In this document: positions 10,310-56,549 of the stretch, piece after piece | How positions within the stretch are numbered: the first letter of the stretch is position 1 | Layout of the letters: each line of letters begins with the position of its first letter | IMG/VR virus record: IMGVR_UViG_3300045988_149282 | Span: 1-64,000 of that record | From: a virus | Lineage: Duplodnaviria; Heunggongvirae; Uroviricota; Caudoviricetes | Reading direction: 5' to 3' (one strand) | DNA: 64,000 nt | The notes under the pieces: generated by a model | Database searches by the model: none | Told to the model about the DNA's origin: nothing | Seen by the model: only the letters and a program-made list of their open reading frames with translations | Translations under genes and position numbers: made by a program

Positions 10310-10576
10310 ATGACGTTAACCGATAAACAAAAGGACATCATCAAAACGCTCAATCTCGGTTATGAGCGAGGTCATTTACTTGATCTGGACGAATTGCTTG
10401 AAGTTTTGCCGTACAAGACAACCAAGCAAAGTATCCAGTTCTCAATTCGCGCTCTGATAAAAAAGGGGCTGGTGGAGAAAGGGCATACGCGCCAACGCAG
10501 TGACAATCGCTATCACCGCCGAACTCTTGGGTTAACTACTTTAGGTCGAGCCAAAGCGAAGTTACTGGTGATGTAA
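10310..10576 (+). CDS. small basic protein, possible winged-helix DNA-binding protein (88 aa)
   Basis: ORF with AAGGA RBS; basic C-terminus; followed by the 55-bp palindrome at 10601-10655. Confidence 0.4.
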   Translation: MTLTDKQKDIIKTLNLGYERGHLLDLDELLEVLPYKTTKQSIQFSIRALIKKGLVEKGHTRQRSDNRYHRRTLGLTTLGRAKAKLLVM

Positions 10577-10600
10577 TCGGTCTGGGAGCTTATTTAAAGA

Positions 10601-10655
10601 CCTGCTTCTGTATATATAAATAATAAGTAACTTATTAAATATATACGGAAGCAGG
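10601..10655. repeat. 55-bp palindromic element, copy 1 (exact duplicate of 47001..47055)
   Basis: CCTGCTTCTGTATATATAAATAATAAGTAACTTATTAAATATATACGGAAGCAGG; near-perfect inverted repeat (one G-T position) centred on AATAAGTAACTTATT. Confidence 0.8.
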
Positions 10656-10690
10656 CTTCGTAAGACATGCCAGACCTAGTTAAACGCCCC

Positions 10691-10733
10691 AGAAAACAAG
10701 TTGGTTAGCAGAAGCAGTAAACAAGTTGTTTTA
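10691..10733 (+). promoter_or_regulatory. two copies of the conserved palindromic motif AGAAAACAAGTTGTT (candidate operator/promoter element)
   Basis: AGAAAACAAGTTGGTT (10691-10706) and TAAACAAGTTGTTTTA (10718-10733), ~40 nt upstream of the 10772 start; the same motif recurs at 1037-1052, 1087-1100, 1603-1616, 44991-45006, 47921-47936 and (degenerate) ~60528-60545. Confidence 0.5.
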
Positions 10734-10771
10734 GAGCGCATGGACGCGCTCTGTGTGTTTTAGAGGGATCT

Positions 10772-11404
10772 ATGACGGTCGAAAAAGACGAGGTAAAAAC
10801 TCGCCTGACACCAGCGGAGTGGGCCGAAGCTGAAGCCAAATGGACGTCAGGCGAATATACACTCTCAAAGCTGGAGGAAGAGTACGGCATTCGTCGTGAA
10901 ACACTCTCCAGACATTTCAAAAAGCGAGGATTAGAGAAAGGCGCGGACTCTGTTGGGAAGATGGTTCGTGAGTCTCTTAAATCTGACGCAGAGCTTCGCG
11001 CTAAAGCCCGTGCGGAAAAGATAGAAGAACGTCGTACACGTTATGACGGCTGGGCGTATGCGTTGGGGCAGATGGTGATGGTCGAAGTCACTACGGCCAA
11101 ACGTGAGAGTAAGCCTTTAGGGGCGATTGAGGATTCTCTCAAGAGCTTACAGAGAGCCAGTAATACCCTTGCAAAATGCTTTGAAGTTTCGTCCAAAGCA
11201 TTGGGCATGGATCATGCGGAAAATGACGAGGAAGAAATTCCGAACCTGGTATTTGGTGAGCTTACGCCTTCCCAGGTGGCGAAATTACGTCAGGAAGACG
11301 ACGAGCCTGAAATCATCGATGACGAATTGCTTGAGACGTTGGAAGAAGAAGCTCTAAGCGAATTTGATGCGACAGATGATGGAAGTGAAGGGGAGGACGA
11401 ATAA
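10772..11404 (+). CDS. terminase small subunit (candidate)
   Basis: Immediately upstream of and abutting the large terminase gene; HTH-like N-terminus and acidic C-terminal tail; positional inference. Confidence 0.55.
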   Translation: MTVEKDEVKTRLTPAEWAEAEAKWTSGEYTLSKLEEEYGIRRETLSRHFKKRGLEKGADSVGKMVRESLKSDAELRAKARAEKIEERRTRYDGWAYALGQMVMVEVTTAKRESKPLGAIEDSLKSLQRASNTLAKCFEVSSKALGMDHAENDEEEIPNLVFGELTPSQVAKLRQEDDEPEIIDDELLETLEEEALSEFDATDDGSEGEDE

Positions 11405-14261: not shown

Positions 14262-14282
14262 TAAGTAACAAAAGGAATTTTT

Positions 14283-40200: not shown

Positions 40201-40456
40201 TCGTAACGGTTATATTGTTGAAATGACATTTAACGTTGGCGGTCAGGAGGCAACTCGCAGTTTCCCGATCAACCCGCGAATGAATATGGGCTCCTACTCG
40301 ATGGAGTTTCGTTTTGCAGCGGATATTCCAGGCAACTATGACAACGTCCCGTTCTTTGTAAGAGCACGTGGTCGGGATGCTACTTGGAACTACCAGTGTT
40401 ATGTAGAAAACATCACTGCCACTGCTTTCCGTACAAACAGCAACTCATTCAGCTAA
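28298..40456 (+). CDS. giant central tail fibre / host specificity protein (J-like, ~4052 aa) with internal coiled-coil plus CBM-like domain array
   Basis: N-terminal J-like region with an FN3-like segment; J-like C-terminal region; between them ~2400 aa of repeated coiled-coil segments each followed by a CBM4/9-like domain (start N-L-x-x-N-x-x-F-E, end Y-x-D-D-V-x-V-x-D-V-T-D). ORF track TTG 28292, first ATG 28298. Confidence 0.85.
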   Translation: MDQFKKKRLPLLIAGAGGKKSSGSSRTPVEADDTVNSRAMASILDLLGEGVVGGLINGAKSIFIDGVALENEDGSFNYSGVTWDFRDGSQDQSPMPGFDFVETPKAVNTQLKTTNAVTVAIDNDDADRVRVIMKFPSLRSIDKKTGDTNGTSVQFKFQLANGNGSFYDVIATGESSSDVKLTAKKTGVYYRSYEIQLPKPGRAYKVRVLRLSADSNDQYLFNDTWVDSIGEIVDTPMNYPNSVLVGLKVNSEQFGSSMPSRSYLIRGLKIRVPSNYDENTNTYNGVWDGTFKLLSSSNPAWILFDLLTNARYGLGKFVSESMIDLGQLYQIGRYCDEEVDDGFGGKEKRFAINTQITSRQDAYRLIQDIAGAFRGMVFWAGGMVNIMQDSPSDPVMLFTNANVKDGLFTYKGSARKDRPSVALITYNNKQDGYKQNVEYVEDQEAMARYGERKTEAVAFGCTSRGQAHRVGLWLLYTARMESDMITFTAGLDASFLMPGETVLIQNKYRAGKRNSGRIVSFTKNSITLDAPVSLKKSGSFIRIINQEGKIVERDINETGDNITKVTFKTALATAEQPVANGVWTITEPDLVPMRARVVAIAQGETPGSFDITVVQNNASKYQAIDNGAALVPENTTVLDPTYSKPSNLVISEGTYLSSPGNLSVKLMLAWEGKSPEYWVSWRRSDEGNVSNWQSARATEEQYEIVNVAENGRYDFQLYSVSFGGKKSEIITAVYQVKGTMTPPGAPTSLTAVGDYRNVVLNWVNPDSVDLAQINVYASKTNKLDTATLIAQAATTTFTHAGLGDNETWYYWIRAVNKRGMVGQPNSNLGTEATTRDVLSFLKDKITSSELGKELLDEIDSKATQEAVDNAIGEVQNSVNESIQQVENDLAQTSSEIKAQVDSVNQSLKEDIKTVNQTIVDNIDAVNQTINTNISNVNSQIEAAKQSIKDGDAALSQEIKNAQSSLTTSLSQTSKDLTAAIQKETNDRIADVNDAAKQAADQLLSAKNELKTSIDSLSEVVTSGDENLARQISQIAAGTGEQFDSLKIWYFDQDAEGWTEDDNGYTPMSVTSDGWLKANNPTSTCRSPNGLTIDAHAYRFIKMRIKKVGNPTWNAKMFWIGADETGWNAGRSVVINEPEYDDKGIAILTLHDLEWRDSTTIRRFRFDFTSGQDTDNYLLFDWIAVGRPTPGAGMAALQEEQQARANADTAEAQARSTLAAQIRGSSESGNLDDIRSGLIYQEKNARITADAAEASARESLQTEFNRNKASVAEELHTLSTEQASQASKITGLQTSLGQKADASAVQTISQKVEEQGNTLKSQGAALSTLDNRVGSVESGVSANSKAITGLQSTVTQQDKTLSSQSESITTLNNSLSDIQSDTDTAKSNPSNLLVNASFERDLAGWSAGNSVSNVIKASAPHSGSKILVCAAGTVQITQSVSVVEGRTYKLSSFVRCTTDAVISSPGNNKLRIGAATLLKEIPIRPENLPKDETWKEVSDTWKATLTGKVDVSIMSSLKTGSQYFDDVGFVDVTDALAIEANASATNALTSRVSSVEGTITSQGQQITSMQNSIKNKADASAVTNLANRVTAAENQISSQSQSITSLSNSLDNANADADASKAIIGNMLKNNSFERGFEGWEYVGWTLLEAQNPKSGKYIIQAGKLASGGDSGCNQTIELQAGKTYRIGAWVRKSADFAINNAGNNKISLRNADLTPIKDIPITGAGLSTNWALISGEYTPAKTASVVVSLRASVASGYMYLDDVFCVDVSNEKAIDATSNALSTLNSTVTQQGKDITSNSNSITSLSNQMVNGRQNMWVRSVYNVQLANNTTEPTFSDINGKAPISIDEVPDAAKLDFASAGSYVIAHYKAFVKVNADTTITMAPGSRVFDDTGAVYVNGVRVAFGNASWNTVSFDLKAGWSTVEFLVNQWTGQAYINLGFKLSEKVAQLNSALGMNALSNAISAVTSNVSTVGDRVTSTSQSVTDLRNSLEQTNANLANKADAQALSTLQNTVSKQGDTISSQGNSITNLNNTLTAARNSGDNLIPNYDFLQGATAWDIQYPAGVAFGNFGDGKAGVKLNRTTTTSPGIFSNNNKPLPLNGQRKYRVVVKAKGVSGAMNMLIRRQNKIGQTDSNYEDKNVTLTSEWQTITWETGLTASNADGQNFKLYAHPANAEIWVDTFKVFDITDEVKIKANSDALSTLSSTVTQQGDKITSQGNSITKLTNDLEAADANIAKKADQSAVTTLTGRVEKTESGLTAANSNITSLSSSLSQQSKRGANLLPDGTFESYAVGHNLSNNRVIVTTDDSHGGNKCIRVTRPNDYNANATDNSDNHIFSGFQVRDNAVFYMECWVKLDANSTAMAENTQISIGLSLQYQDNSWQWPAVTKAAKDLSTAQWTKVSGYLKSTKSGIKQAMVRISIPNVSSVKAGNSFLIDDLVITEVTDAYNAQSTADANANAISTLDSTVSQQGDQITSQGNSITKLTNDLATTNNNVSKKADQSALSVLSGRVDQTESGLSSANSSITALNSSVRAGNATSGDLISNPTFDPEFSQMGFTVVPSSSEGVPANCPYAYVARIAARDHHPNFAAIPATLGDVYEMSALVACGTGSADFNLYLGTATRPSGSVGAPLSSGGNRKASATWQRVTWRFKITQGIVDRGFFRPFLQINQSSPFGTVWYVTDWHLRNVTDSSKVQDSLDATAKAVDSLTSTVNQQGENISSIGTRTTNLENNLRTTNANVAQKADANALTALTNRVTQTEKDINSTSSSVTNLNNKVDAISVGGTNLIKNSGDMTGWSNVVSDTYRGNAVIGATVKAGSGYRDLREITLESPVDAGEYVYSFYAKGGVAGQIMTAFFYNPNTTTSIETSQGAKGNNSDGRAQFTLTTSWARYWVKWKQTPTTSTKRLILCRIESNTSKDQTVYINSPKFEVGNVVSDWNESPSDSASASAVDSLTTKVNQQGTSISSIGNRTTSLENGLSTAQNNIAKKADASALQDLRNTVTSQGDDLTAANSSITSLHASMNRRTVFTVTARGNGNSVTHGVFDESGKNLFTPGRSWALVTFAKHSDGSTVIATSKTYDVFGSANNGATMSADIEALASGTYVCVLTFDEPTGNRGKVLSALESLGGTSEVVNSLPYRGAYILLGRKGMKPGDGLELRAPTGGDGTAHISTSVEFVNGVMMGLGAAGGVMMKADANASAITTLQNTVKTQGDNIDSLSSSTTALENSLASSNASVDAASQIPGNLIVNPSFERGTEGYTGWSGIATVATLQVPHLGTKAAKLAAGGSAGVGQKISFKKDRSYKIGIWAKQDPNTTIQSTDNTKFRVADGTGLIASKVYGPFTSNWQEVSWTWKATKDVLADVQFTAFLSAGAMYFDDFYVVDVTDSVETQANSSAITKLDSRVTKTENDITSQGSQVTQLKNDLATTNTNVSKKADAAALTALTNRVTQNEKEIGTQSSQTTSLKNSLSTVQAMGSNPWFDGSLETYSENQQISGSRAVVVSSQKRSGTKSLRVSRGAGEGGNSDKTIGKWIALRENAVFRIELWAMMPADQSPSSGWSTLVGLQTQNAANNNNWPTAITINEAALGARGAWKKFTGTLRVAAGHTRGAFWVSTRGTTGTGTPGYDLYIDDVVVTDITDAKEAQDSANSNASALTSLTSRVTNVEGQVTSQASQLSSLTSQVNDASSKVDQMAQTITNNEKTQSSLNTSLQSQIDAQASANIKNQTELNNATTSMAAIKSTQQTQATTISALSQQQTNLTAQVGGQSAELQELKKTVVENGNVNSTWMVKMETNSNGKKYAAGIALGIDGKNLQSQFLVQTDRFGLINTSNGNTTTPFVIENGVAYINAAVIKDGSITNAKIGGEIRSDNFVNGSNGWRIGKDGSSQFNNAIFRGHIEARSGTFKGTLEAQNFIGDIAVARRYAGLSFRRNNTVQRDGRYQNRGYGMTIVLSCTLIYQVTGGNEDRNGYIVEMTFNVGGQEATRSFPINPRMNMGSYSMEFRFAADIPGNYDNVPFFVRARGRDATWNYQCYVENITATAFRTNSNSFS

Positions 40457-45041: not shown

Positions 45042-45710
45042 ATGACCAAGATCTTTGTGGTTGGCGGCACAAAGGGCGGGCCTGGCAAATCCACCGTTGC
45101 CCAGCAAATTGCCGTTTGCCTGAAAGTCAAAAAGAAGAAGAAGGTTTATATTACCGATATAGATATTCAGCGCACGACAACGAGCTGGTGTGAAGACCGT
45201 CGACAGAACGAAGACCTTGAGCTGATTCCTTTTGCATACGTTCAGGATGACATCATTAAGCACCTAAAATCGCTTCAGGGTAGAGCTGAGTTTGTAGTGG
45301 TAGATGCTGGTGGCTTCGACTCCGAAATTCAGCGACAAGCGATGCTGATGGCTGACGTTATCATTATCCCGCTGCGTCCTAAGCGTCGTGATTTGAAATC
45401 TTTACGTGACATCGATCCTATTATCGACAATGTTCGCAATGTAAACGATAAAGTGAAGGTCCGCGCGGTCATGAACCAGTGCCCGGCTTTGCCATCACAA
45501 GTGTCTCGCATTCTGGCGGCTAAAGAGATTGTTGAGACGTTTGGCATCGAGTCTGCGCCAGTCAATCTATATAACCGCAACGTCTATGATGATGCGGAAG
45601 AGTCTGGTCGCTCTATCTTTGAAATGACCGGTAGCGAGCGCGACAAAAAGGCGGAAGCCGAGTTTGAAGAATTTGTAGATTATCTGTTGAGTCTGGAGGA
45701 AGAAGAATAA
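45042..45710 (+). CDS. parA: ParA/Soj-family partition ATPase
   Basis: Deviant Walker A (GGTKGGPGKST) typical of ParA/MinD; size ~222 aa suggests a type Ib ParA; conserved upstream motif AGAAAACAAGTTGTTT at 44991-45006. Confidence 0.85.
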   Translation: MTKIFVVGGTKGGPGKSTVAQQIAVCLKVKKKKKVYITDIDIQRTTTSWCEDRRQNEDLELIPFAYVQDDIIKHLKSLQGRAEFVVVDAGGFDSEIQRQAMLMADVIIIPLRPKRRDLKSLRDIDPIIDNVRNVNDKVKVRAVMNQCPALPSQVSRILAAKEIVETFGIESAPVNLYNRNVYDDAEESGRSIFEMTGSERDKKAEAEFEEFVDYLLSLEEEE

Positions 45711-46069
45711 TGTCCATGAAAATGGGTGACCTAGCAAAGCGCAAAGAGCCTGATGCACCGGCTAAGAACACAACTCCTTTGCGCCAACCAGTCAGACCAC
45801 AGGGACGCCCGACTCGTGGCAAAGAGAAAATTAAAAGCCGCACAATGTCACTGGAGGACGAATACTTCGAACTGCTGGAGATGATGAAGTTCATCCCTCG
45901 CTTCGAGAAGTTCACTCGTTCTGACGTGATTCGAGCAGCCATTTTCCATCTGGCAGAGAAGTCACCGCAGGAAATCGAGGACATCGTGAAATTGAATGAG
46001 GCGATCACCGCTGCCGATGTCACGATGCGTACCGATGAAATCAAACGAGAGTTGATGAAGAAAGGTTAA
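45710..46069 (+). CDS. partition partner protein (candidate centromere-binding protein, ParG/RHH-like)
   Basis: Start overlaps parA stop (TAATG); basic disordered N-terminus with structured C-terminal region, as expected for a small ParA partner. Confidence 0.5.
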   Translation: MSMKMGDLAKRKEPDAPAKNTTPLRQPVRPQGRPTRGKEKIKSRTMSLEDEYFELLEMMKFIPRFEKFTRSDVIRAAIFHLAEKSPQEIEDIVKLNEAITAADVTMRTDEIKRELMKKG

Positions 46070-46073
46070 AAAT

Positions 46074-46104
46074 CATGCATTGGCGCGTACATTGCGCCAA
46101 TGCA
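46074..46104. terminator. bidirectional terminator between convergent genes
   Basis: 12-bp perfect inverted repeat ATGCATTGGCGC / GCGCCAATGCAT with 7-nt loop between the partition operon (+) and the GIY-YIG gene (-). Confidence 0.6.
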
Positions 46105-46121
46105 TAACTACAGTGTCAGCT

Positions 46122-46889
46122 TTATGCCGCGCTAACACTATGTTCAGTCCTAACCACCCCAACCTTCACAAAAGGGCTACCGTAGCTTGGTGGCTTCTTG
46201 ATTAATTTGCCTACATACAGTTTTCTAATATGCTCATCGGCTATTCTGCCAACAAATTCATAACGTTTTGTGTCGGGGCCAAGAGCTATATCCCTTGTAA
46301 AGTACTGCTGAGAACCGGCTTTGACCCAGCATTCAATCTGATAAACTTCCATTATCAGCCCACCATATGTAGCGTAGGCATATTTGAGATTCTCGTCTCT
46401 TGGAACCTTTGCCCATACGCCACGCGTAGCTTCATATAATGCCAGAGCGGACATTCCTGACTTGTAGGTGCTGTTTAGCAGGAAGGCAAGACCGGCGTGC
46501 TCAGGAGCAATTTCAGTTTCCTCTTGCAGCACTAAGTGATGGTAGGCGTCCAGTGATATTCTGCCCATCATGGAACCACTTCCTCGTACCTTATTCGTAA
46601 GCTCTCCGACCCCCATAAGGTCGATGCATGTCGCCTCAACAAGTTTGGCTGTGGTTTCATCCATACCATGACGAAGTATATCTATGCCTAATTTTTTATT
46701 AGCCAAAAGTTCTTTGATCCGCATGGATTTGGGAGAGTCATCGGGATACTTGATGTGATCGAGACAACGAGTCGATTTGCCTTTTCCTATGTAAAACGGT
46801 CTTTTCATCTTGTCTTCTGTATCATAGAGACAGTAAACATAGTATTTAGCCTTATCCAATGATCTCGCGTATACCGATAAATCGTCCAT
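46122..46889 (-). CDS. GIY-YIG family nuclease (homing-endonuclease-like)
   Basis: N-terminal GIY-YIG-type motif (YYVYCLYD ... RPFYIGKGK ... R ... H); convergent with the partition operon and separated by a 12-bp-stem bidirectional terminator. Confidence 0.55.
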   Translation of the reverse strand: MDDLSVYARSLDKAKYYVYCLYDTEDKMKRPFYIGKGKSTRCLDHIKYPDDSPKSMRIKELLANKKLGIDILRHGMDETTAKLVEATCIDLMGVGELTNKVRGSGSMMGRISLDAYHHLVLQEETEIAPEHAGLAFLLNSTYKSGMSALALYEATRGVWAKVPRDENLKYAYATYGGLIMEVYQIECWVKAGSQQYFTRDIALGPDTKRYEFVGRIADEHIRKLYVGKLIKKPPSYGSPFVKVGVVRTEHSVSAA

Positions 46890-47000: not shown

Positions 47001-47055
47001 CCTGCTTCTGTATATATAAATAATAAGTAACTTATTAAATATATACGGAAGCAGG
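47001..47055. repeat. 55-bp palindromic element, copy 2 (exact duplicate of 10601..10655)
   Basis: Identical 55-mer located between the GIY-YIG gene and the replication module. Confidence 0.8.
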
Positions 47056-47171
47056 TCTTTTAAAAGACACCACCAGAACAACTCCCTTCCGTTTCCACTT
47101 CCAAAAACTGCCACCAGTCGCTATCATCCGCTCATTGTGATAAGTAAGTAACTACCTACCAGGTGAGCCAC

Positions 47172-47912
47172 ATGAGCCAAATCTTTTTCGATACCATCGA
47201 CAACGACCAGTACGACTTCATGACAGAGTGGAATACCGCTGTTATGGACAAGTGGGTCGCTGAAAACATTGGTTTGTCGCGCTGTAAAGACGAGGCTGAA
47301 CTCTTCGAGACGAAGTGGTTTGATTACCGCGACATGCATCCTCTCATGGCCACCTGTCTTTTTACGGAGGCATACAAACGTCAGTACTCAAATATCATGC
47401 TGACGCACGGTCGCGAACACTTTGAAACAGCTCCGTTCACCACCGGGTTAAAACGCCTGCCTTATCAGGAGTTGTCGACTGCCAATAAAACGTCGCTATG
47501 GAAAGCACGCCAGTTTGCGGATCGCTATTGCTGCTCATACGACTACTTTATCTCCACCGTTCTTTCCGCAGCTGCACGACGGCTGTGGGACAAGCTGCCG
47601 CGCCCACAGCATTTATGGCAGCCAGAACTGATTGAGATATTTGAAGAGAAATTAGCCAGACGCGCAACAACCCGTCTGGATGACTCTCTGGTTAGCTTTA
47701 AGCATATGGGAGACATGCAGTTCAACCCGATTCAGGAAAGCTATTTTGAGTGGATTCTGGAGCGTTTGCGCACCATCCCTCGCAGCAAGCGCATACGCGC
47801 AATTTTCTCCGCTATCTGGCTAATGGAAATCGTTCCAGAGCGCCTTATTTCCGCCCACTTTCCAGAAGAACTGGAAGAAGCACGGCGGTTTATTGATCCC
47901 CTATCTAATTAA
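47172..47912 (+). CDS. hypothetical protein (~246 aa), replication-module associated
   Basis: ORF track 47163 (GTG), first ATG 47172; immediately upstream of the DnaB-like helicase. Confidence 0.5.
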   Translation: MSQIFFDTIDNDQYDFMTEWNTAVMDKWVAENIGLSRCKDEAELFETKWFDYRDMHPLMATCLFTEAYKRQYSNIMLTHGREHFETAPFTTGLKRLPYQELSTANKTSLWKARQFADRYCCSYDYFISTVLSAAARRLWDKLPRPQHLWQPELIEIFEEKLARRATTRLDDSLVSFKHMGDMQFNPIQESYFEWILERLRTIPRSKRIRAIFSAIWLMEIVPERLISAHFPEELEEARRFIDPLSN

Positions 47913-47920
47913 CTAATACT

Positions 47921-47936
47921 AGAAAACAATTTGTTT
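47921..47936 (+). promoter_or_regulatory. AGAAAACAATTTGTTT motif upstream of the DnaB-like helicase gene
   Basis: Motif variant 20 nt upstream of the helicase ATG. Confidence 0.5.
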
Positions 47937-47955
47937 AAAAAACAAAGGAAAGCAC

Positions 47956-49296
47956 ATGACCGAACTTTGCCATACAGGACGCGGGCTGTCCGAAGAGTTT
48001 GATGAAGATTTCCAGAACAGACTGACGGCATATTTTTGTCGTGATCACGAGTTTCTTACTCGTGCGGGAGATCTGGTTGTGCCTAGCCAGTTTGCCAATG
48101 CGGCCAATGCCATATTGGTTAATATGGTTTCGGGCTATTACCGTATGTACAAGAGCGCGCCCTCTTCATCTGCAATTCTGGATATGCTTAAGCGTGCGAA
48201 ACGCGATAAGACTATCCGTGAGGAACTATTCGCCGATGTTGTTGCTGCGTTTAAGCGCATTCTTGCAGAAAAATTGTCCGATACCTCGTACATGGTTGAC
48301 CAGGTATCAACCTTCGCAAAAAGTGTAGCGTTTGATGATGCTCTGATTAAGGCTGCTGAACTGAAAGAGAAAGGCGACTTTCAGGGGGCGATGGCAATCA
48401 TGGCCAAGGTTCAGCAGATTGGATCGAACGAAGCGACCGGAATCTATGACTACTACACCTCCGCAAGTGAGCGATTGAAAGCGCGTGAATATGAGGCTTC
48501 AGAGGAGTATGTACCAAACAGTATTACAACTGGACTCCCTCTTCTCGATAGGTTGCTGTACCAAAAAGGCTGGGCAAAGCGCGAAATGGTGCTCTTCATG
48601 GGGTTCGCTAAATCCGGTAAATCGACCGCAATGGGTGAGTTTTCCATAAACGCAACGCTTGCTGGCTACAATGTTCTGTATCTCTCGCTGGAGGTTCACA
48701 CCACCATTTTATCCGACCGTTTTGATGCAAGATTGTCGGAGACAGAAATGTCCAAGCTGGTGGAACGGCGCGATGAGGTTCATCGTAAGTTGGCAGAGTT
48801 GGGAGCCACGAAGGGGATTGGTAGTTTGTGGGTGGTTGAGCGTCCGTCAGGAAGTATGTCACCGGCAGATCTGGACCGTATGCTTAACAGCATGAAAGCC
48901 AACGGCATGGTGCCTGACATGGTTGTTGTCGACTACGCAGATTTGATGCGTGCCAGTTATGACCTTCGTGATGATCGCGCCAACATTCGTAGCATCTACA
49001 CCGATTTACGTGCTCTTTATGACAAGCATAACGTTGCTGGGATCACGGCATCGCAGACAAACCGTGAAGGTGGCGCGTCAGAAGTTGCCACAATGATGCA
49101 CGCTGCCGACAACATCGAAAAAGTACGTATTGCTGACCTGGTAATAACGATCAACAAAACCGAAGAAGAAGAAGCGAAAGGAGAGGCTCGTCTCTACTTT
49201 GCCGGTTCACGTAACCAGCAGGGAGGGATCAGCATTCGCGTTAAACAAAACCTCGAACAAATGCGCTTCATTGAGCGAATCTTAGACGTTACCTAA
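47956..49296 (+). CDS. replicative DNA helicase (DnaB-like, RecA-fold C-terminal domain)
   Basis: DnaB C-terminal motifs (SITTGLPLLDRLL), Walker A (GFAKSGKST), Walker B (VVVDYADLM), ITASQTNREG; RBS AAAGGAAAG. Confidence 0.85.
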   Translation: MTELCHTGRGLSEEFDEDFQNRLTAYFCRDHEFLTRAGDLVVPSQFANAANAILVNMVSGYYRMYKSAPSSSAILDMLKRAKRDKTIREELFADVVAAFKRILAEKLSDTSYMVDQVSTFAKSVAFDDALIKAAELKEKGDFQGAMAIMAKVQQIGSNEATGIYDYYTSASERLKAREYEASEEYVPNSITTGLPLLDRLLYQKGWAKREMVLFMGFAKSGKSTAMGEFSINATLAGYNVLYLSLEVHTTILSDRFDARLSETEMSKLVERRDEVHRKLAELGATKGIGSLWVVERPSGSMSPADLDRMLNSMKANGMVPDMVVVDYADLMRASYDLRDDRANIRSIYTDLRALYDKHNVAGITASQTNREGGASEVATMMHAADNIEKVRIADLVITINKTEEEEAKGEARLYFAGSRNQQGGISIRVKQNLEQMRFIERILDVT

Positions 49297-54116: not shown

Positions 54117-54863
54117 TTTTATGTATAAGATGACTTTGTTTTCGTTGAGACGCGACTGTTTGAACTTAAATACAAGTGCAAACGAAGAAGTCTATCTGGC
54201 AGTAGCCTAATAAGCCAAACACCAGCGAGGTCAGTTTCCAGCCTCGTTACCGAAATGGGACACACTGAGCGAGTGTGATTGCAGAACGCAGGAGGGAACA
54301 TTCATGTTCCCTCCGATGAAGTAACAGAATGGGCGGTTGGTATATTTTCAACTCCATATGACTCCCGGATTCTTAGCCTCTGACCGCCCATCCTGTTACG
54401 TCATTTTGTTCAATTATGTCGTTTATACTGGGTTAAAAAGCGGCGACGTAGCCCGGCTGGTATGGTTAGCCAGCACACAACGTTGAGGCCATTACATTTT
54501 TATCAATTCTAAGGTTCTATTCACAGAGATACCGGCGAGCGTTGATATGTAACATGTTGGGCAAACATTCAATCGGAGTAGTGGCCTCAACGTTGTGAAG
54601 ACAGGATTGTTGTGTAGGTTTAACCACTGTTGCCATTGGTGCCTGTTTTCACAACAAATGATTCCATACATCACATTGTATAAATTACAAAGTAGGTGCT
54701 GTCCTCAGAAACATCATCTACTTAAAGATTTTGCCTTCTACTATTGAGCGAAGTCGAAAGCGTCTGGCACTAACGAAAAGTGCAAGTAGCGGTGCGTTTC
54801 CTGGCAGAAACTAAACCGTCGCGATTGGCACTGTTGAGTAATAAATACTGGCAGTGCTGAATT

Positions 54864-54938
54864 GATGGTGTAGCTCAGCGGTAGAGCAGTTGGCTGTTAA
54901 CCAACTGGTCGGTGGTTCGAATCCACCCACCATCGCCA
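54864..54938 (+). tRNA. tRNA-Asn (anticodon GTT)
   Basis: Hand-folded cloverleaf: 7-bp acceptor GATGGTG/CACCATC, D-arm GCTC/GAGC, anticodon loop CTGTTAA, T-loop TTCGAAT, encoded CCA. Confidence 0.8.
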
Positions 54939-54943
54939 ATTTA

Positions 54944-55030
54944 GGGGAGTTAGTCCGTAGAGGTAGCGGTGTAGACTGTAAATCTACTGTCATGGCGACT
55001 CGGGTGGTTCGACTCCATCACTCCCCACCA
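54944..55030 (+). tRNA. tRNA-Tyr (anticodon GTA), class II with long variable arm
   Basis: Acceptor GGGGAGT/ACTCCCC, anticodon stem GTAGA/TCTAC with loop CTGTAAA, long variable arm, T-loop TTCGACT, encoded CCA. Confidence 0.75.
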
Positions 55031-55034
55031 AATT

Positions 55035-55110
55035 GCCGGTTTAGCTCAGTTGGTAGAGCGCCTGCCTTGTAAGCAGGATGTCAGCGGTTCGAGTCCGTTA
55101 ACCGGCACCA
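55035..55110 (+). tRNA. tRNA-Thr (anticodon TGT)
   Basis: Acceptor GCCGGTT/AACCGGC, D-arm TAGCTCAGTTGGTAGAGC, anticodon loop CTTGTAA, T-loop TTCGAGT, encoded CCA. Confidence 0.8.
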
Positions 55111-55404
55111 ACATAATATTGAGAACATTGGCGTAACGGGTTCATATCCCAATTTATGAATATAATGTTGCGTTGCAGCGTGACAACCAGTGTTCTCAAC
55201 ATTGTGGTGAATGCACAGGCTGATGTGCGACGTAGAAGCAAGCGGATGAACTGCCTGAAGGCCGCTAACGTAGGCAATGCCGGAGATCAGCACCGGCCAT
55301 CACAATTTGGCTCTCTTGCAACAGCATAACGCTGAAATACGTCCAACCTGGTGCGGTCTGATCACCCGCCGTTAGCTCCACGAAACGGAGCACACAACAC
55401 AATT

Positions 55405-55491
55405 GGAGAGTAGGGAGCATGGTGCTCAAGCGGTCTTGAAAACCGTCCCATTGTGCAAACGATGATGGTTCGATTCCATTACTCTCCGCCA
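55405..55491 (+). tRNA. tRNA-Ser (anticodon TGA), class II (candidate)
   Basis: Acceptor GGAGAGT/ACTCTCC, anticodon stem GCGGT/ACCGT with loop CTTGAAA, long variable region, T-loop TTCGATT, CCA. D-arm atypical, hence lower confidence. Confidence 0.6.
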
Positions 55492-55628
55492 GACACAGCG
55501 TTGAGCGGTTTGGCCTTTTAATCAACCAGATTAAGACTCCGCTAACATAAACCAGACCGCTCAACGCTGTGATAGACAATTACGGCAGACGTTCTTAACC
55601 ATAGCTTGCTAACATCCTAGCAACACTT

Positions 55629-56339: not shown

Positions 56340-56549
56340 TGACAGGGGCGTATACGCCCCTATCTAAAATTTGACATTAAACATATATTGCATCTGGTAT
56401 CAGCAATTTTTGTGCGCTATGTAAGTCCTTACCTGCAATCAGTCTCATAAATATCGGATTTTACGTAGCGTACCATCGTTACAGCAAGCATCAAATTATT
56501 CACTGACATTTATGCGCTGAAAACAGCGTTACTTACCGTAAAATAACAA

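Follow-up and report, generated by a model that had tools for sequence, protein, structure and literature searches.

The closest described counterparts of the element studied here are the intrinsic (Rho-independent) terminators, including those that insulate morons and other cargo in temperate phages, which typically have a stem of about 5-14 bp and a loop of 3-8 nt. Long interrupted RNA duplexes are known from operon junctions as well: in lambda sib/tI, transcription that reads through the terminator extends its stem into a substrate for RNase III, and the RNase III sites of T7 are several sites of similar sequence in one genome. The PeSL cassettes of T4-type phages are stem-loops repeated at module boundaries, beside variable or hyperplastic regions. 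The herpesvirus origins oriS and oriL, three per genome, have an AT-rich palindromic centre between inverted boxes that bind protein. Lastly, the phage-plasmid N15 has dispersed palindromic centromeres (SopB sites) scattered through its genome, some of them near par genes. The element that we describe shares features with each of these systems and differs from each.

The DNA analyzed, hereafter the window, is a stretch of 64,000 nucleotides (positions 1 to 64,000 of IMG/VR record IMGVR_UViG_3300045988_149282) and is that of an SSU5/pHCM2-type phage-plasmid. The E. coli phage-plasmids CMS-2020a and PhiR41_1 are 98-99% identical to the region. Cyrano (pLF82) is 99% identical up to copy A of the element, where the Cyrano record ends, and 97% downstream of copy B, these figures being for the shared parts only; Salmonella phage SSU5 is about 83-87% identical and the Klebsiella relatives about 79%. 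A preliminary description of the window had reported a 55-bp sequence that occurs twice, without a mismatch, in noncoding DNA about 36 kb apart. This is confirmed: CCTGCTTCTGTATATATAAATAATAAGTAACTTATTAAATATATACGGAAGCAGG is present exactly at 10601-10655 (copy A) and at 47001-47055 (copy B), both on the + strand, 36,400 bp apart and intergenic (Table 1), and an exact 55-mer repeat appeared in none of 100 shuffles of the sequence. Elsewhere in the window, a single ORF of 4054 aa (28292-40456; a giant tail or host-recognition protein) far exceeds the corresponding SSU5 tail genes in length, and a cluster of tRNA genes (Asn-GTT, Tyr-GTA, Thr-TGT and Ser-TGA; 54864-55491), in a stretch with few ORFs, has long inverted repeats near it, at 54316-54404, 55109-55209 and 55494-55571.

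Table 1. Features around copies A and B of the element, in window coordinates.
Feature	Position	Strand	Description
88-aa ORF	10310-10576	+	PHROG 900, DNA-binding annotation in relatives; copy A lies 3' of the gene
Extended imperfect palindrome around copy A	10579-10676	+	GGTCTGGGAG (10579-10588) can pair with GCCAGACC (10669-10676); potential hairpin of about 100 nt
Copy A	10601-10655	+	Arms CCTGCTTCTGTATATAT and ATATATACGGAAGCAGG, AT-rich interior; 24 nt past the stop codon of the 88-aa ORF, 116 nt before terS
Copy A tail	10656-10664	+	CTTCGTAAG, a poor U-tract
Packaging-operon leader	10694-10771	+	Two palindromic AAACAAGTTG(T/G)T motifs (10694, 10719); hairpin at 10734-10751; terS ATG at 10772
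parA (222 aa) and 119-aa partner	45042-46069	+	Upstream operon aimed at copy B
Variable cargo gene	46122-46889	-	Adjoins copy B upstream; LEM-3-like GIY-YIG nuclease domain, PF22945, E = 5.5e-7
Copy B	47001-47055	+	Identical to copy A; between the parA/cargo region and the replication module
T-run after copy B	47056-47064	+	TCTTTTAAA; would-be U-tract of an intrinsic terminator
249-aa ORF and DnaB-like helicase	47163-49296	+	PHROG 2500; first replication-module genes downstream of copy B

The 55-mer folds at -30.5 kcal/mol on the + strand (z = -7.65 against shuffles) and at -26.4 kcal/mol on the - strand (z = -7.08). Its lower stem of 17 bp, with one G.U pair, is followed by an asymmetric 3/1 internal loop and then by an upper stem of 7 A/U pairs that is closed by a 3-nt loop; the 10 bp at the base of the stem include six G-C pairs and the one G.U. 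The sequence had been taken for a near-perfect inverted repeat with a single mismatch that would be a G-U pair in RNA. The G.U pair is indeed present in the 17-bp stem, but it is not the sole irregularity, given the internal loop. No minus-strand match to the 55-mer was found at up to three mismatches, so its reverse complement differs at more than three bases and the repeat is not near-perfect. Raw fold energy does not single out the elements, because GC-rich coding DNA folds equally strongly, and sliding-window folding of the whole window left both copies out of the eight most stable 70-nt windows. No Rfam 15 family matched the element at its gathering threshold; the matches were microRNA-precursor models at chance level, with 15-22 bits against thresholds of at least 70. 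No promoter-like or sigma-70 site was found inside or beside either copy. In this respect the element differs from the PeSL cassettes, whose recurrence at module boundaries beside variable regions it shares, and it differs from them also in having three copies only, at fixed positions. Our literature searches turned up no account of such an element.

The centre of the 55-mer had further been described as a TAAGTA core common to smaller intergenic hairpins. The octamer TAAGTAAC is over-represented in the window, with 8 occurrences observed against 1.3 expected. Beyond the element, most sites coincide with overlapping stop codons where genes end (TGATAAGTAA at 14262, 15164 and 47145) or fall within an ORF, and a single one, at 56528 on the minus strand, is in the loop of another hairpin. 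A hairpin family built on this core was therefore rejected, the enriched octamer being mostly gene-end stop codons or intra-ORF sequence.

The two copies in the window belong to a family of three: copy A precedes terS, copy B precedes the replication genes, and copy C, outside the window, follows a DNA methylase gene. All three are complete in SSU5, where A spans the junction of the record ahead of terS, B is at 33458 ahead of the replication genes and C is at 78304, following the DNA methylase. Cyrano likewise has A, B and C, and in CP053388.1, the genome closest to the window, the third copy is found about 19 kb outside it, past its start. The 55-mer occurs in about 825 PLSDB plasmids, at roughly three places per record, with Klebsiella, Escherichia, Enterobacter, Yersinia (pMT1), Salmonella, Citrobacter and Cronobacter as hosts. 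A pattern scan of IMG/VR returned 116 copies, all in one orientation, and their contexts, assigned by flanking homology, were A for 39, B for 48 and C for 29. Loci that were anchored on neighboring proteins, a choice without bias towards the search pattern, numbered 80 for each copy and held a recognizable element in 68 cases for A (anchored on TerL), 78 for B (anchored on the 249-aa ORF) and 68 for C. A search of related genomes for conservation and position, which had been proposed as a check, thus places the element at three syntenic slots, in one orientation and with conserved arms. It is a fixed feature of these genomes and not a mobile repeat.

These data bear directly on the idea of a mobile palindrome of the MITE or REP-like kind, or of a site for site-specific recombination, the latter having been among the early proposals. 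The sequence is palindromic and repeated, and the variable cargo upstream of copy B makes that copy a mosaic boundary. Yet all 116 copies occupy the three syntenic positions and none lies elsewhere, and in plasmid and phage searches the full-length matches were confined to the enterobacterial phage-plasmid group, with weak partial matches elsewhere. The 27-bp spacer does not fit the core sites of tyrosine or serine recombinases. A recombinase site present as three direct repeats would break up the replicon, and the fixed, directly oriented syntenic positions contradict a recombination site. We regard mobility or recombination as an extremely improbable account of the element.

Comparison among relatives reveals which parts of the element are held constant. 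The arms CCTGCTTCYGTATA and TATACRGAAGCAGG are almost invariant, and the AT-rich interior drifts through TA slippage, substitutions and one inversion. Elements from E. coli and Klebsiella are 92-95% identical, against about 79% for the surrounding 2 kb. Exact conservation over 55 bp had been read as a sign of sequence-specific function. This argument is weakened, because only the arms of 10-14 bp are conserved across relatives; the interior varies, and the identity of A and B is limited to some lineages. Close relatives show several differences between their copies A and B, so that the exact identity of the two in the window reflects recent homogenization and not selection on all 55 bases. Paralogous copies within a genome carry common lineage-specific variants; one genome has an identical unusual interior in A, B and C, and in the L196/L365 genome TATCCAGAGCA(C/A)GGC is common to A and C. 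These patterns indicate that copies within genomes are occasionally homogenized, of which the identity of A and B in the window would be one case. We infer that the shared sequence among copies, including the identity of A and B, stems from common descent and occasional gene conversion; these can account for the concerted arms, since genes for an exonuclease and a recombinase, as a pair, are present in these phages.

Covariation within the main sequence type is weak, because most arm pairs never vary: 89.2% of the cells are paired, against 88.3% in shuffles, and two-sided changes are few. The double changes in this type include C8-G48 to T-A and T6-A50 to G-C. In deep lineages both arms have changed jointly (CCTGCTTCCGTATA / TATACGGAAGCAGG versus GCCTTGCTCCCATA / TATGGGAGCAAGGC), and the GCCTTGCTCCCATA ... 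TATGGGAGCAAGGC variant is found at both A and C. When the diverged arm type was searched for with a 15-mer, most matches were due to chance and five loci were relevant. In a diverged lineage (L363, L364, L378 and L407, IMG/VR relatives with about 81% TerL identity), the A and C elements are followed by a shared AACACTGCGGAAA directly before the next gene; the A copy of this lineage has an interior of about 105 nt, and its 5' arm is degenerate in one of the two genomes examined.

The explanation that we favor, with moderate confidence, is that the elements are long intrinsic terminators that insulate gene modules. Copies A, B and C are all oriented along transcription, and each follows the 3' end of a gene block with another block just downstream. 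Copy A stands between the ParB-like, ATPase and 88-aa genes and the packaging operon, and copy B between parA with the cargo and the replication genes, with C placed after the DNA methylase. Once transcribed, the stem of about 24 bp, with its GC-rich base CCUGCUUCUG / CGGAAGCAGG, followed by a U-run, would release RNA polymerase by factor-independent termination. The lytic modules would in this way be shielded from the genes of the plasmid (lysogenic) state, namely the par genes and the cargo.

The likeness to intrinsic terminators lies in several features. The 55-mer is a stable stem-loop with a GC-rich base, it is followed by a T-run at B and C, and it stands in sense orientation just past a gene block. 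The nine nucleotides after copy B contain, among distinct relatives, a mean of 5.5 T on the + strand versus 3.8 on the opposite strand, and those after copy C 4.4 on the + strand versus 2.8 on the - strand. After copy A the means are 3.5 and 3.7, respectively, and there is no convincing U-run in the E. coli, SSU5 and Klebsiella lineages. The element also departs from the usual form: its stem of 17 + 7 bp with an internal loop, about 24 bp in all and AT-rich in the upper half, is far longer than that of a typical intrinsic terminator, its sequence is reused at three sites and conserved across genera, and copy A lacks a U-run. A scan with a simple terminator consensus did not call the 55-mer.

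Expression data from a relative point to a sharp drop in RNA across copy B. In RNA-seq of strain LF82 grown in LB, the Cyrano genes gave values of 50 for ParA/CYRAN_28, 89 for CYRAN_29 and 55 for CYRAN_30, and then 6 for CYRAN_31 on the other side of copy B (PMC9928086, S1 Table); in other conditions the log2 values across copy B are 10.4 versus 2.6 (PMC9928086). As gene-level counts in a relative's genome, these correspond to a drop of 9-fold (LB) to more than 100-fold. The element is the only strong hairpin in the Cyrano intergenic region at copy B. Across copy A the gene-level counts fall 2- to 4-fold, at low expression. No drop is seen at copy C, where the upstream expression is already at background, so the Cyrano RNA says nothing on C.

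The slots themselves provide a second line of comparison. In one more diverged lineage (L186 and L196), canonical terminators fill two of the slots: at A there are hairpins with runs of T5-T7, and at C the element has decayed and a canonical terminator, AGAGATTCAGGCAC-TTAC-GTGCCTTAATCTCT plus GTTTTTC, comes after it. The joint changes of both arms in deep lineages, and the persistence of element A beside its upstream gene when cargo is inserted before terS (L190 lineage, below), also count in favor of a terminator. Among non-Watson-Crick pairs in the arms, 45 are G.U on the + strand versus 17 on the - strand, a bias that is only suggestive because the sequences are related. Fold energies calculated for both strands of 62 distinct sequences (core and extended) gave no consistent preference, with B favoring the + strand, C the - strand, and A depending on the flanks.

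Taken by copy, termination at B is well supported. Termination at C is suggested by the T-run and by the terminator that occupies its slot in one lineage, and the case for A is weak; that termination occurs at the hairpin itself is what these observations lead us to infer. The element had been proposed to be a bidirectional terminator, among other roles. The terminator part of this proposal is favored, most clearly at B, also at C and weakly at A, but the signals run in one direction only, that of the + strand.

Copy A, which has no good U-run and is enclosed in a longer outer palindrome, is probably a leaky terminator and may instead, or in addition, be a 3'-end-protecting or RNase III-type processing hairpin. 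Against shuffled flanks, this outer extension has a mean z of -3.2 at A (below -2 in 23 of 24 distinct sequences), compared with -1.0 at B and -1.8 at C. The structure recalls lambda tI/sib, in that the inner hairpin of copy A is nested in a longer palindrome that can form only in read-through transcripts, and both lambda tI/sib and the T7 sites, in that a long interrupted RNA duplex lies at operon junctions; the likeness to T7 extends to several sites of similar sequence in one genome. The outer pairing is significant at A only, however, and the proposed likeness is one of structure.

A more general version of this comparison holds that all of the elements act as RNA-level hairpins without termination, as putative RNase III processing or 3'-end-protecting sites that turn a polycistron into module-sized mRNAs. 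The coaxial stem of about 24 bp with its asymmetric internal loop offers the stretch of interrupted double-stranded RNA, at least about 20 bp, that an RNase III site requires, copy A is without a U-run, the palindrome of about 100 nt at A is formable only in read-through RNA, and the + strand G.U bias fits a role in RNA. We nevertheless consider it unlikely as the main function, since the outer pairing is non-significant at B and weak at C, and the large drop in RNA at B is more simply explained as termination at a hairpin followed by UCUUUU. Processing by RNase III is compatible with termination.

The position of copy A also raises the question of packaging. The element lies close upstream of terS (Table 1), and the GenBank records of SSU5 (NC_018843.1) and Cyrano (OV696614.1) are both linearized inside it, at ...ACTTATTA | AATATATACGG, which corresponds to 10638/10639 in the window. 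These two observations would fit a cos or pac site that is cut by terminase at copy A. The same sequence is present at B, however, and a close relative of it at C, so that with three copies per genome the site is not unique. The start of the Cyrano record was apparently matched to that of SSU5, judging from the records and a comparison figure (PMC9928086), and a contig break at a repeated hairpin is an expected assembly artefact; such a break, carried from SSU5 to Cyrano, is more likely than a real virion end. TerL has distant matches only, at about 25% identity, to T5-like and Jersey-like phages, T4 gp17 and P74-26, which do not decide the packaging type; that these nearest relatives are not classical cos phages is weak evidence against the proposal. 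In the L190 lineage, moreover, element A and terS are separated by the insertion of an AbiJ-like gene that runs on the opposite strand, and the element stays beside the stop codon of the 88-aa ORF. The three copies, the insertion between A and terS, the TerL relatives and the common contig-break artefact together make a packaging site very unlikely. We found no relative of TerS with a solved structure, and no paper reporting the termini of SSU5 or of SSU5-type virions.

Two further observations concern the packaging side. The inserted gene of L190 (785-1678, minus strand, IMG/VR contig 3300014631_000001) is an AbiJ-like defence gene with PF18863 and PF22809, and element A of that lineage has conserved 9-bp arms around a different 30-nt interior. 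The leader of the packaging operon contains a conserved, terminator-like hairpin, GAGCGCATGGACGCGCTC followed by TGTGTGTTTT, that ends about 10 nt before the start codon of terS; relatives show compensatory changes in it (GAGCAC...GTGCTC, GGCGC...GCGCC and GGTGCA...TGCAC). This leader hairpin may be an attenuator or an antitermination target for the late operon. On the other side of copy A, the 88-aa ORF is the last gene of a block with two genes for ParB_N-domain proteins and two for ATPases, with terS and terL lying beyond the element.

Copy B lies 107 nt before the 249-aa ORF, which is followed by DnaB and primase. In SSU5 and Cyrano it sits after + strand genes; in the window a minus-strand cargo gene intervenes, and the + strand parA operon still points towards the element. 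The Cyrano homologues of parA and its 119-aa partner are expressed in lysogeny. Cyrano, SSU5 and one CMS-2020a record lack the GIY-YIG gene and have other genes (CYRAN_30, DUF2971) in the slot. More than ten different upstream flanks were found in IMG/VR, and the slot upstream of B is therefore a cargo hotspot with the element as its right edge. Between the convergent 119-aa (+) and GIY-YIG (-) genes there is a perfect palindrome at 46075-46105 with 12-bp arms, ATGCATTGGCGC-GTACATT-GCGCCAATGCAT; it is probably the terminator of the GIY-YIG cargo gene, because a T-run follows it on the minus strand.

The immediate proximity of copy B to the replication module is one of the reasons to consider a DNA-level dyad site, in which an AT-rich meltable or cruciform centre and conserved boxes would serve a phage protein, as a lytic origin or as a roadblock or insulator. 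Sequence is conserved in the arms, with an AT-rich centre that is free in sequence and length, the paralogous arms evolve in concert within each lineage, and symmetric half-sites predict compensatory-looking changes equally well. The arrangement is analogous to that of herpesvirus oriS/oriL: inverted boxes that are conserved flank an AT-rich centre that varies, and of the three copies one lies beside replication genes. Against this, the elements have one orientation relative to transcription and the T-runs of B and C lie on that strand only, the element tracks the upstream gene when cargo is inserted, and canonical terminators occupy a slot in which the element has decayed. Isolated half-sites were not enriched elsewhere in the window, GC skew is featureless at copies A and B and tracks gene orientation only, and no candidate binding protein was found. 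The comparison with oriS/oriL therefore has its limits: neither an origin-binding protein nor a skew signal was found, and the strand-specific T-runs would favor a role at the level of the transcript. On balance a DNA-level site appears rather improbable.

A related proposal is that the copies are dispersed centromere sites of a plasmid partition system, as in N15. Copy A comes after two ParB_N-domain genes and copy B after parA, and the palindromic sites are scattered in a phage-plasmid genome, some near par genes. The sequence and geometry of the element are nonetheless unlike those of ParB-type sites. The arm itself is not palindromic, and the distance of about 35 bp between the arms differs from that in sites for ParB or ParG; copy C is near no par gene, and repeat arrays are absent. 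A centromere is in our judgment a highly unlikely identity for these hairpins.

The window contains another dispersed palindrome, the 13-bp motif AAACAA(G/T)TTGTTT, with 19 strand matches at up to one mismatch against 2.7 expected and none of 100 shuffles reaching this number. Its sites include 131, 1038, 1089, 1605, 5734 (minus strand), 10694, 10719, 44043, 44994, 47924 and 60529, and almost all of them are 25-80 nt upstream of + strand start codons. Among the genes behind it are terS (two copies of the motif), parA, DnaB and the ORFs at 1121, 1638 and 60561, and (G)ATAAT(T)AACACCAACAAGA often stands just before it. It looks like a candidate operator for a global regulator, or else like a component of a promoter or leader specific to the phage. 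That a motif distinct from the element already resembles a family of regulator-binding sites was counted in favor of the terminator reading.

One set of findings runs counter to a plain terminator. The conservation of the arms and the lineage variants that are common to paralogues exceed what termination needs, and the conserved arms and concerted copies could reflect recognition by a trans-acting factor instead. We see as possible, if doubtful, that the GC-rich arms are recognized, as DNA or RNA, by a co-evolving factor of the phage-plasmid and that the elements are switchable module boundaries; such recognition would account for the lineage-specific arm variants shared by paralogous copies. 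The boundaries could, for example, be lytic replication origins that unwind at the AT-rich centre, or a phage factor could set termination on in lysogeny and off, through antitermination or processing, in lytic growth.

Returning to the preferred explanation, the element is best filed as a sequence-conserved, triplicated, extra-long terminator hairpin, an unusual form of a familiar feature. The hairpins are useful but fairly ordinary punctuation and not a new type of element. Phage-plasmids of the SSU5/pHCM2/pMT1/pKpn type are frequent in clinical Enterobacteriaceae, and their cargo includes resistance and defence genes. If the hairpins are insulators, they would mark the transcription units of the whole phage-plasmid family, and CCTGCTTCYGTATA...TATACRGAAGCAGG would be a simple sequence marker for module boundaries. 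The build-up of cargo beside the elements would then be accounted for, with the GIY-YIG gene, DUF2971 and CYRAN_30 upstream of B and the AbiJ-like gene downstream of A. If a phage factor also recognizes the elements, they would offer a handle on lysis-lysogeny control in this poorly studied group.
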